From assembly GCF_029227855.1 (NCBI RefSeq), contig NZ_CP074356.1: a stretch of 64,000 nucleotides of DNA; one strand, written 5' to 3'. The notes beneath the pieces are model-generated. The model was not told the origin of the DNA. It searched no databases and worked only from the letters and a program-made list of their open reading frames with translations. Below, in pieces: positions 44,957 to 49,477 of the stretch (its first letter is position 1; every line of letters begins with the position of its first letter). Both the position numbers and the translations under genes were made by a program. The DNA is from Escherichia coli (lineage in GTDB: Bacteria > Pseudomonadota > Gammaproteobacteria > Enterobacterales > Enterobacteriaceae).

Positions 44957-45883
44957 GTGGCAGTCGCCATGGATAATGCAATTTTAGAAAACATCTTGCG
45001 GCAAGTGCGGCCGCTCATTGGTCAGGGTAAAGTCGCGAATTATATTCCGGCGCTGGCTACAGTAGACGGTTCCCGATTGGGTATTGCTATCTGTACCGTT
45101 GACGGACAGCTTTTTCAGGCCGGAGACGCGCAAGAACGTTTTTCCATTCAGTCTATTTCCAAAGTGCTGAGTCTCGTTGTCGCCATGCGTCATTATTCCG
45201 AAGAGGAAATCTGGCAACGCGTCGGCAAAGATCCGTCTGGATCACCGTTCAATTCTTTAGTGCAACTGGAAATGGAGCAGGGTATTCCGCGTAATCCGTT
45301 TATTAATGCCGGTGCGCTGGTGGTCTGCGATATGTTGCAAGGGCGATTAAGCGCTCCCCGGCAACGTATGCTGGAAGTCGTGCGCGGCTTAAGCGGTGTG
45401 TCTGATATTTCATACGATACGGTGGTAGCGCGTTCCGAATTTGAACATTCCGCGCGAAATGCGGCTATCGCCTGGCTGATGAAGTCGTTTGGCAATTTCC
45501 ATCATGATGTGACAACCGTTCTGCAAAACTACTTTCATTACTGCGCTCTGAAAATGAGCTGTGTAGAGCTGGCCCGGACGTTTGTCTTTCTGGCTAATCA
45601 GGGGAAAGCTATTCATATTGATGAACCTGTGGTGACGCCAATGCAGGCGCGGCAAATTAATGCGCTGATGGCGACCAGTGGTATGTACCAGAACGCGGGG
45701 GAGTTTGCCTGGCGGGTGGGACTACCGGCGAAATCTGGCGTTGGTGGCGGTATTGTGGCGATTGTTCCGCATGAAATGGCCATCGCAGTCTGGAGTCCGG
45801 AACTGGATGATGCTGGTAACTCGCTTGCGGGCATTGCTGTCCTTGAACAATTGACGAAACAACTAGGGCGTTCGGTTTATTAA
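44957..45883 (+). CDS. glsB: Glutaminase 2 GlsB (YneH)
   Basis: 308 aa, GTG start; serine-dependent glutaminase family. Confidence 0.9.
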
Positions 45884-46242
45884 TGCAGTCTCTCGATCCA
45901 CTCTTCGCGCGTTTATCCCGTTCAAAATTTCGCTCTCGGTTTCGTTTGGGCATGAAAGAGCGTCAGTATTGTCTGGAGAAAGGCGCGCCAGTCATCGAAC
46001 AACATGCGGCGGATTTTGTCGCTAAACGTCTTGCTCCGGCATTACCGGCTAACGACGGTAAGCAAACCCCCATGCGCGGGCATCCGGTGTTTATCGCTCA
46101 GCACGCCACTGCAACCTGTTGTCGCGGTTGTCTGGCTAAGTGGCATAACATTCCGCAGGGTGTTTCGTTAAGCGAGGAACAACAACGTTATATCGTGGCG
46201 GTAATCTATCACTGGTTGATTATACAGATGAATCAGCCATGA
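45883..46242 (+). CDS. yneG: DUF4186-family protein YneG
   Basis: 119 aa; start overlaps the glsB stop. Confidence 0.8.
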   Translation: MQSLDPLFARLSRSKFRSRFRLGMKERQYCLEKGAPVIEQHAADFVAKRLAPALPANDGKQTPMRGHPVFIAQHATATCCRGCLAKWHNIPQGVSLSEEQQRYIVAVIYHWLIIQMNQP

Positions 46243-46380
46243 TAATTGCGGAAAACGATAAAATAGCATTCCCAGGATATCTTTATTTGCCGCCGCTGTC
46301 AGCGAACATGCTATCCTTTATAAGAATTTACTTATTACGTTGAGATAATTGCCACCCGCAATTGTATGGACAGATAATTA

Positions 46381-47799
46381 ATGCATGTACAGCCCATTTC
46401 AACTTTCCGTTTGTTCCAGGAAGGTCATCTGCTACGTAATAGCATCGCTATTTTTGCGCTAACCACGCTGTTCTATTTTATTGGTGCAGAGTTACGGCTG
46501 GTTCACGAACTTTCTCTTTTCTGGCCGCTGAATGGCGTAATGGCGGGGGTGTTTGCCCGCTATGTCTGGCTTAATCGACTGCATTACTATGCGATCAGTT
46601 ATGTGGCAATGCTGGTTTATGATGCCATAACCACCGAATGGGGGCTGGTTTCACTGGCTATCAATTTCTCCAATATGATGTTTATTGTTACCGTCGCCTT
46701 ACTGGTCGCGCGGGATAAGCGTCTGGGGAAAAATAAGTACGAGCCAGTAAGTGCCTTACGGCTATTTAATTACTGTCTGATTGCCGCATTATTATGCGCT
46801 ATTGTCGGGGCGATTGGTTCGGTCAGTATTGATAGTCTGGATTTCTGGCCTTTGCTTGCCGACTGGTTCAGTGAGCAATTCTCAACGGGCGTGTTGATAG
46901 TGCCTTGTATGCTGACGTTGGCAATTCCTGGAGTGCTGCCGCGCTTTAAAGCAGAACAGATGATGCCCGCTATCGCGCTTATTGTGTCGGTTATTGCCTC
47001 GGTAGTCATTGGCGGAGCGGGGAGTCTGGCGTTCCCGCTGCCTGCATTAATCTGGTGTGCAGTGCGCTATACGCCGCAGGTAACATGTCTGTTGACCTTT
47101 GTCACCGGTGCGGTGGAAATCGTACTGGTGGCAAATTCGGTGATTGATATCTCGGTCGGTTCGCCATTCTCCATTCCAGAAATGTTCTCCGCACGTCTCG
47201 GTATTGCCACGATGGCGATATGCCCAATTATGGTTTCTTTTAGCGTGGCAGCGATCAATTCGCTAATGAAGCAAGTTGCGCTGCGAGCCGACTTTGATTT
47301 TCTGACTCAGGTTTACTCACGGTCCGGTCTTTATGAGGCGCTGAAAAGTCCATCGCTGAAACAGACACAACATCTGACTGTCATGCTGCTTGATATCGAC
47401 TATTTCAAAAGTATTAACGATAACTATGGACATGAATGTGGCGATAAAGTGTTAAGCGTGTTTGCAAGGCATATTCAGAAGATTGTCGGTGATAAGGGGC
47501 TGGTGGCACGAATGGGCGGCGAAGAATTTGCTGTTGCAGTGCCGTCGGTGAATCCTGTCGATGGTCTGCTAATGGCGGAAAAAATCCGTAAAGGCGTTGA
47601 ACTGCAACCGTTCACCTGGCAACAAAAAACGCTTTATCTCACGGTAAGTATTGGCGTCGGTAGTGGTCGCGCATCGTACCGAACGCTGACCGATGACTTT
47701 AATAAATTGATGGTCGAAGCCGATACGTGTCTGTATCGCTCGAAGAAAGATGGGCGCAACCGTACCAGCACTATGTGTTACGGTGAGGAAGTTGTCTGA
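46381..47799 (+). CDS. dgcF: Membrane-anchored diguanylate cyclase DgcF (YneF)
   Basis: 472 aa; N-terminal polytopic membrane domain plus C-terminal GGDEF domain (ARMGGEEFAV). Confidence 0.85.
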   Translation: MHVQPISTFRLFQEGHLLRNSIAIFALTTLFYFIGAELRLVHELSLFWPLNGVMAGVFARYVWLNRLHYYAISYVAMLVYDAITTEWGLVSLAINFSNMMFIVTVALLVARDKRLGKNKYEPVSALRLFNYCLIAALLCAIVGAIGSVSIDSLDFWPLLADWFSEQFSTGVLIVPCMLTLAIPGVLPRFKAEQMMPAIALIVSVIASVVIGGAGSLAFPLPALIWCAVRYTPQVTCLLTFVTGAVEIVLVANSVIDISVGSPFSIPEMFSARLGIATMAICPIMVSFSVAAINSLMKQVALRADFDFLTQVYSRSGLYEALKSPSLKQTQHLTVMLLDIDYFKSINDNYGHECGDKVLSVFARHIQKIVGDKGLVARMGGEEFAVAVPSVNPVDGLLMAEKIRKGVELQPFTWQQKTLYLTVSIGVGSGRASYRTLTDDFNKLMVEADTCLYRSKKDGRNRTSTMCYGEEVV

Positions 47800-48025
47800 C
47801 ATCTTTATTCATTCAGAGCGATTTAAATGCAATGTGTTCTACCACTTTATGATCCAAGAAAAGGCGTTTTTCCTCGATTAAACCATGATCCGCGCCACAC
47901 TTTTCTCATAAAACTGCTCATTAATCATCAGGAGTTGATCAAAACAGGGGTTCGGCGTATTAAAGTTTGCTAACCTGTCGTACCAATTCAAACAGGTTGT
48001 ATGACTAATCAGAAGGGAACCCATT

Positions 48026-49477
48026 GTGAAAACACTAAATCGTCGCGATTTTCCCGGTGCACAGTATCCAGAACGTATCATTCAGTTTGGTGAAGGTAAC
48101 TTCCTGCGCGCCTTTGTTGACTGGCAAATCGATCTCCTGAATGAGCACACCGATCTGAATTCTGGCGTGGTCGTTGTTCGTCCGATTGAAACTTCATTCC
48201 CGCCGTCACTGAGCACGCAGGATGGTCTGTATACCACCATTATCCGTGGCCTGAATGAGAAGGGTGAAGCGGTCAGCGACGCGCGTCTGATTCGCTCGGT
48301 TAATCGTGAAATCAGCGTCTACAGTGAATACGATGAATTCCTGAAACTGGCGCATAACCCGGAAATGCGCTTTGTTTTCTCTAACACCACCGAAGCGGGT
48401 ATCAGCTACCATGCGGGCGATAAATTCGATGACGCGCCAGCGGTAAGTTATCCGGCAAAACTGACCCGTCTGCTGTTCGAACGTTTTAGCCATTTCAACG
48501 GTGCGCTGGATAAAGGTTGGATCATCATCCCGTGTGAGTTGATCGACTACAATGGCGACGCGTTGCGTGAACTGGTGCTGCGCTATGCGCAAGAGTGGGC
48601 ACTACCAGAAGCATTTATTCAATGGCTGGATCAGGCTAACAGCTTCTGTTCTACGCTGGTGGACCGTATCGTTACCGGCTATCCGCGTGATGAAGTGGCT
48701 AAACTGGAAGAAGAACTGGGTTATCACGATGGTTTCCTCGACACCGCTGAACACTTTTACCTGTTTGTGATTCAGGGGCCGAAATCCTTAGCGACTGAGC
48801 TGTGCCTGGACAAATATCCACTCAACGTGCTGATTGTTGACGATATTAAACCGTACAAAGAACGCAAAGTGGCAATCCTCAACGGTGCGCACACCGCGCT
48901 GGTGCCGGTGGCGTTCCAGGCAGGGCTGGATACCGTAGGTGAAGCGATGAACGATGCTGAAATTTGCGCATTCGTTGAAAAAGCCATCTACGAAGAAATT
49001 ATTCCGGTACTGGATTTGCCACGCGATGAACTGGAATCTTTCGCTAGTGCAGTCACCGGACGTTTCCGTAACCCGTACATCAAACATCAGTTGCTGTCTA
49101 TCGCCCTCAACGGTATGACCAAGTTCCGCACCCGCATCCTGCCGCAACTGCTGGCAGGGCAGAAGGCAAACGGCACACTTCCGGCGCGCCTGACTTTCGC
49201 ATTAGCGGCATTGATTGCGTTTTATCGCGGTGAGCGTAATGGAGAAACATATCCGGTACAGGACGATGCACACTGGCTGGAACGTTATCAGCAACTCTGG
49301 AGCCAGCATCGTGACCGTGTTATCGGCACCCAGGAACTGGTAGCGATTGTTTTGGCAGAAAAAGACCACTGGGAGCAGGACCTGACGCAAGTGCCTGGTC
49401 TGGTCGAGCAGGTGGCTAATGACCTGGATGCGATTCTCGAAAAAGGAATGCGCGAAGCTGTACGTCCGTTGTGCTAA
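48026..49477 (+). CDS. uxaB: Altronate (tagaturonate) oxidoreductase UxaB
   Basis: 483 aa, GTG start; mannitol dehydrogenase family. Confidence 0.9.

Follow-up and report, generated by a model that had tools for sequence, protein, structure and literature searches.

Positions 46381-47799 of the window, a 64,000-nucleotide stretch of an Escherichia coli genome (NZ_CP074356.1), very probably encode DgcF (YneF), an inner-membrane diguanylate cyclase, in its intact and ancestral form, which combines a putative divergent MASE1 domain with a GGDEF domain; the gene known as dgcF in K-12 is a deletion remnant. We note that the truncation and misannotation of the K-12 gene were already published in 2014 (Richter et al., PMC4287979). 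What we add are the exact breakpoints of the K-12 deletion (46316-46813, 498 bp, with no microhomology in the junction sequence), the frequencies of the alleles, further independent loss alleles, the assignment of the membrane domain to MASE1, and a lead that points to the S-components of ECF transporters. The window strain is simply wild-type for dgcF, and the oddity is K-12.

The dgcF locus in the window

The ATG at 46381 is the first start codon past the in-frame upstream stop in the ORF listing, and it opens a frame that RefSeq/PGAP annotates as WP_123055379.1, "sensor domain-containing diguanylate cyclase", in NZ_AP045174.1, a sequence 100% identical to the window at this locus. The ORF list and this identical call bear out the 472-residue protein put forward in a preliminary description of the sequence. 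The polytopic membrane part of about 300 residues that the same description placed ahead of the GGDEF domain was likewise recovered by hydropathy, by an AlphaFold2 model and by the Pfam placement of GGDEF at residues 303-461. Coordinates of the features discussed here are collected in Table 1.

Table 1. Features of the dgcF region, in window coordinates
Feature	Position	Strand	Details and basis
yneG (DUF4186), upstream neighbour	45883..46242	+	ORF list, annotations
Upstream region lost in K-12	46316..46380	+	promoter-like sites and weak Shine-Dalgarno; consensus scan and sequence reading
Segment absent from K-12	46316..46813	.	498 bp: 65 bp before ATG, codons 1-144 and 1 nt; blastn
Candidate TGaGATAAT	46341-46349	+	consensus match only
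Candidate promoter TTGCCA-18-GATAAT	46349-46378	+	consensus match only; best match, ends 3 nt before ATG
Weak GGA Shine-Dalgarno	46368-46370	+	10 nt upstream of ATG 46381
Full-length dgcF (yneF) CDS	46381..47799	+	472 codons and stop; ORF list
Predicted ten-helix membrane domain, residues ~17-299, divergent MASE1-type	46429..47277	+	hydropathy, AF2, MASE1 profiles
In-frame TTG, codon 158, annotated start of K-12 b1522	46852..46854	+	K-12 CDS begins TTG; alignment offset 157 residues
GGDEF domain, residues 303-461	47287..47763	+	PF00990, 138.4 bits
GGEEF active site, residues 379-383	47515-47529	+	motif scan

The flanking genes, glsB-yneG upstream and uxaB downstream, are those of the dgcF/yneF locus of K-12 (ORF list and annotations). 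The order sad-glsB-yneG-dgcF-uxaB-yneE is common to both K-12 and the 100%-identical annotated strain, which, with the near-identical sequence outside the deletion, identifies the window gene as the orthologue of K-12 dgcF. A 138-bp intergenic region separates yneG from dgcF, and the K-12 deletion has its left end within it. The region between dgcF and uxaB occupies window positions 47800-48025. A simple scan of 46150-48050, for which about two sites are expected by chance, found no intrinsic-terminator-like site after dgcF. We also considered a plasmid-borne dgcF and rejected it: the few "plasmid" records found in PLSDB and among the E. coli genomes are 4.8-4.9-Mb records or non-mobilizable fragments, i.e. 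mislabelled chromosomes or chromosomal contigs.

The deletion in K-12

In MG1655, dgcF (b1522) is annotated at 948 bp, or 315 aa, which agrees with the much shorter K-12 gene that the preliminary description mentioned. Comparison of the window with MG1655 by blastn gave two blocks, which adjoin in K-12 and lie 498 bp apart in the window. The right block (46814-48100, 1,287 bp) is 98.5% identical at the nucleotide level, and the left block (46101-46315) shows 94.9% identity, with 11 mismatches in 215 bp. The left block, immediately left of the deletion, spans the 3' end of yneG and the intergenic region, and the drop in identity there may reflect either the usual divergence of intergenic DNA or a recombination boundary at the site of the deletion.

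Because the deletion took the ATG and codons 1-144, K-12 dgcF is annotated from an internal TTG. Upstream of this TTG the K-12 frame is open for just 29 codons and contains no ATG, so K-12 has no 472-codon frame. The choice first posed between an internal annotated start and a truncated K-12 gene turned out to be no choice, as both are true: the deletion occurred, and the gene was then annotated from the TTG at codon 158. Within the common 315 aa, the window and K-12 proteins differ at three positions (E267Q, R434L and C466R). On the predicted model, the deletion deprives the membrane domain of helices 1-5 out of ten. It also takes out all candidate promoter and ribosome-binding elements that consensus matching found before the ATG. 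The 315-aa "DgcF" of K-12 is a remnant, probably promoterless, that is annotated from an internal TTG.

These observations agree with what has been published. K-12 yneF was described as 5'-truncated by a deletion, with a misannotated start and no expression (Richter et al. 2014, EMBO Mol Med, PMC4287979), and it was the extended yneF of EAEC O104:H4 and EHEC O157:H7 that exposed the truncation (PMC4287979). Full-size yneF showed weak, mainly RpoS-dependent expression, and none was seen in W3110 (PMC4287979). The loss of the candidate promoter and ribosome-binding site, together with half of the sensor domain, is consistent with the published non-expression in K-12.

The membrane domain as a probable divergent MASE1 domain

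The AlphaFold2 model (pLDDT 89.5) predicts ten helices in the membrane domain, at residues 17-37, 49-60, 67-84, 89-111, 122-147, 155-179, 191-210, 219-229, 232-251 and 267-299. With helix 10 running to about residue 299 and the GGDEF match starting at 303, there is essentially no linker. An N-terminal membrane region of about 300 aa with ten helices, followed by an output domain, is within the layout of MASE1 domains (8-10 TM helices). An exhaustive phmmer search with the N-terminal domain returned 406 representative clusters, nearly all with proteins of 460-490 aa, the length of the same membrane-plus-GGDEF architecture. We saw no signal of internal duplication when the N-terminal and C-terminal halves of the domain were compared with hhalign (E = 0.11). 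Searches of the PDB found nothing below E = 0.7 with Foldseek and no relevant chain with a sequence profile.

From profile comparisons, the DgcF membrane domain is predicted to belong to the MASE1 superfamily as a divergent member; the MASE1 domain reportedly goes back to Nikolskaya et al. in 2003. The window protein itself had no MASE1 match in Pfam, at E <= 1 for the full length or at E <= 10 for the N-terminal 300 aa, where nothing meaningful appeared (only SAYSvFN, at E = 0.21), and it did not reach the PF05231 gathering score of 29.8 bits. We then scanned 81 diverse full-length relatives one by one against Pfam, and 61 of them matched MASE1 (PF05231) at E <= 0.1, the best at 3.2e-11. Two relatives with 29-31% identity to DgcF pass the gathering score with near full-length coverage of the model (P0243, 31.7 bits, and P0241, 31.4 bits). 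Of the four that were tested at 32-34% identity, two lie a little under this score (P0151, 26.7 bits, and P0145, 18.6 bits), one is marginal with 12.3 bits and one has no match, and relatives at 39-71% identity gave none. The MASE1 signal thus weakens as relatives approach E. coli DgcF. A MASE-type sensor, which the preliminary description had raised, was missed by the direct Pfam search of the window protein and found, in divergent form, through its relatives and through profile-profile evidence.

Comparison with confirmed MASE1 proteins of E. coli pointed the same way. The MASE1 domains of DgcE, PdeF, UhpB and PdeA were confirmed with Pfam, and an HMM of the family's N-terminal domain reached DgcE residues 1-251 with E = 9.2e-10 in a proteome-sized search. 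Using hhalign, the family profile matched DgcE alone with 88% probability and a profile of the DgcE-family MASE1 domain with 94.1% probability (E = 1.2e-7, 212 collinear columns), which we interpret as homology to a bona fide MASE1 domain. The alignment pairs invariant positions of DgcF and DgcE, namely N98/N97, W162/W159, E165/E163, P175/P172 and WCA/WSA. When the DgcF model was set against a low-confidence model of DgcE, all ten helix boundaries agreed within about 3 residues. Other searches returned less. When the hhalign template was an alignment of four E. coli MASE1 domains that differ greatly from one another, the result was E = 0.12, for which we blame the poor quality of that alignment. 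An HMM built from the top ten family sequences, those closest to DgcF, reached no E. coli MASE1 protein. The family profile does not reach PdeF, PdeA or UhpB, and in reverse phmmer searches the best family match of PdeF had E = 0.15 and PdeA and UhpB had none.

These null results, along with the missing Pfam match of the window protein and of its relatives at 39-71% identity, would fit a domain that forms a separate family with no kinship to MASE1 or to other E. coli proteins, the view stated in 2014 (PMC4287979); the signal in the relatives would then be an artefact of hydrophobic composition. We consider this improbable. Of 189 decoy ORFs, other membrane proteins included, none bettered E = 5 with the family HMM, compared with 9e-10 for DgcE, and the 212 collinear columns match invariant polar and aromatic positions, beyond hydrophobic runs. 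In addition, two relatives pass the curated MASE1 threshold over nearly the whole model, and ten helices in about 300 aa agree with the published description of MASE1. We found no assignment of the DgcF domain to MASE1 in the searched literature, and protein-family databases may already make it, as the PGAP name "sensor domain-containing" hints. Pfiffer et al. (2019) list DgcE, PdeA and PdeF as the only E. coli c-di-GMP enzymes with MASE1, and the size and ten-TM layout that they describe match the DgcF domain.

Ancestry and translation start of the long form

Orthologues of 472-482 aa occur in E. fergusonii, Citrobacter, Enterobacter and Lelliottia, with 72-88% identity over the N-terminal 300 aa (86-88% in E. 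fergusonii, ~83% in Citrobacter, and 72-75% in Enterobacter and Lelliottia). Since full-length orthologues are present in these other genera, the long form of dgcF is the ancestral one.

The opposite history, in which K-12 preserves the ancestral short form and an insertion of about 498 bp gave the window strain a fortuitous long ORF, has nothing in its favour except the bare difference in length, and we regard it as practically inconceivable. Outgroup orthologues of 472-482 aa with 72-87% identity over the full N-terminal 300 aa already refute it. The segment is also present in 77% of complete E. coli genomes, holds the invariant or nearly invariant residues W48, P49, N51, R60, D81 and N98, and is predicted to encode the first five helices of a ten-helix domain, which the model folds as one unit with good confidence. 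Several of the same features bear on where translation begins. The 472-codon ORF could be over-extended, with the true start internal, for example at the K-12 TTG, and the first 157 codons untranslated. The Shine-Dalgarno sequence is indeed weak (GGA, 10 nt before the ATG), and the best consensus promoter match, TTGCCA-18-GATAAT, may not be a real promoter because it stops only 3 nt short of the ATG. An internal start is nevertheless very improbable given the conservation of residues 1-157 as protein across genera at the same N-terminal length (in P0121, residues 7-299 align to 7-299). These residues include the nearly invariant FWPxN, R60, D81 and N98 and are collinear with the N-terminal half of MASE1 in DgcE. 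A protein starting at the TTG would keep five of the ten helices, and PGAP annotates the 472-aa form.

Frequency of intact and disrupted alleles

We found the dgcF locus in 5,414 of 5,426 complete E. coli genomes. The intact 498-bp segment was present in 4,196 of the 5,426 (~77%), and the exact K-12 junction, detected with a 43-mer across it, in 1,216 (~22%). The junction is carried by ATCC 8739, NCTC86 and W3110, among others, and by numerous field isolates. Of the 5,414 genomes that bear the locus, 5,412 are explained by these two alleles; thus the K-12 deletion is one natural allele at a frequency of ~22% and no laboratory artefact.

Other disruptions were also seen. In strain 2018-166 (NZ_CP075632.1, L007 2509-5082), IS1A lies directly 5' of a dgcF copy that has no N-terminus, ptrR, sad, glsB and yneG are missing, and yneK is truncated too; this allele is an independent, IS1A-associated loss of dgcF. 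A 514-aa fusion ORF (P0007) joins the first ~300 residues of DgcF (98% identical) to a HipA C-terminal domain. This dgcF'-'hipA fusion is found at L008 5001-6545 (GCA_001638065.1) and at L009 944-2488, followed by fimbrial genes and not by uxaB, and P0009 (460 aa) is a similar fusion. The fusion implies a ~20-kb deletion between dgcF and hipA in some strains. That about 22% of strains share one loss allele, and that at least two other independent alleles exist, suggests that dgcF is dispensable or counter-selected in some lineages.

The distribution matters for the use of K-12 as a reference. Work that takes b1522 as its basis, be it a knockout, an overexpression clone or a domain annotation, does not reflect the protein of ~77% of E. 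coli. As a reference strain for c-di-GMP signalling, K-12 has a DgcF without its putative promoter and without half of the sensor domain.

The GGDEF domain and function

The C-terminal domain is a full-length match to PF00990 (138.4 bits, against a cut-off of 23.8, with full coverage of the model) and also matches TIGR00254 at 130 bits. In an alignment of 81 family sequences, we took columns of the GGDEF domain with conservation of 90% or more as nearly invariant; among these, the window protein keeps D338, D340, K343, N346, D347, H351, D355, R377, K455 and R459. A full catalytic signature has been listed for yneF (Spurbeck 2012, Table 1; PMC3484386). From these residues and the intact GGEEF motif, the GGDEF domain is predicted to be catalytically competent. 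A motif scan found no RxxD I-site anywhere in the protein, and the sequence before GGEEF is GDKGLVARM. The absent I-site agrees with Richter 2014, where yneF was reported to have a hydrophobic domain of ~300 aa and a GGDEF domain with an intact A-site and no I-site (PMC4287979).

Experiments on full-length orthologues have been published. In Shigella, dgcF increases c-di-GMP as measured by LC-MS/MS, an effect abolished by a GG->AA substitution, and it influences acid resistance and invasion (PMC11327459). In CFT073, the phenotypes of a yneF deletion were complemented by the diguanylate cyclase WspR (PMC3484386). Among four cloned E. coli membrane diguanylate cyclases expressed ectopically, DgcF was the sole one that did not inhibit motility (PMC10127611); if the clone carried the K-12 allele, a defective remnant would fit this result.

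Together, these features suggest how DgcF may work. The MASE1-like domain would respond to a signal at or within the membrane by shifting the last transmembrane helix, helix 10. This helix would set the relative position of two GGDEF domains and so gate productive dimerisation and c-di-GMP synthesis, which would be free of product feedback given the absent I-site. Candidates for the signal are a partner protein, as in the pairs DgcE-RdcA and UhpB-UhpC, and a small ligand embedded in the membrane. We know of no partner of DgcF like RdcA or UhpC. UhpC is the partner of UhpB. For DgcE, the partner RdcA has been described (Pfiffer et al. 2019).

Comparison with known systems

The predicted DgcF model shows a tentative resemblance in fold to the S-components of ECF (energy-coupling factor) vitamin transporters (RibU, ThiT, BioY, FolT, BtuM, PanT and CbiM). 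The resemblance comes from one model and is not localised to either half of the domain. ECF S-components bind vitamins inside the membrane. Pfam may already place some sensor transmembrane domains and S-components in one clan. A sequence profile detected no similarity between the DgcF domain and S-components, and Foldseek likewise returned nothing. DgcF differs from ECF S-components in having ten helices rather than six and in lacking the ECF T and A partners; by sequence family and by T/A partnership it is not an S-component, and the likeness is one of fold only. We tentatively raise the idea, on balance unlikely, that a six-helix core with the S-component fold may lie at the centre of the DgcF domain and, by homology, perhaps of MASE1 domains in general. 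Were this true, DgcF could directly sense a small ligand that is embedded in the membrane or accessible from the periplasm, beyond docking partner proteins. No link between MASE1 and ECF S-components was found in the searched literature.

The DgcF/YneF described by Richter et al. (2014) is the same gene at the same locus, with the same architecture, the same 5' deletion in K-12 and the same misannotated start, and nothing substantive differs between that account and ours. Compared with MASE1 proteins, DgcF shares with the domains of DgcE, PdeA, PdeF and UhpB a length of ~300 aa, ten TM helices and a position N-terminal to a signalling output domain. Unlike them, it fails the Pfam model, and only remoter members of its family match, near the gathering score. 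The closest likeness is to DgcE, with which it aligns at conserved N, W, E and P residues and a WxA motif and agrees nearly exactly in modelled helix boundaries; unlike DgcE, DgcF joins its GGDEF domain directly, with no PAS domains. The MASE1 assignment in this way links DgcF with those of DgcE and UhpB, two systems that have been studied in more depth.
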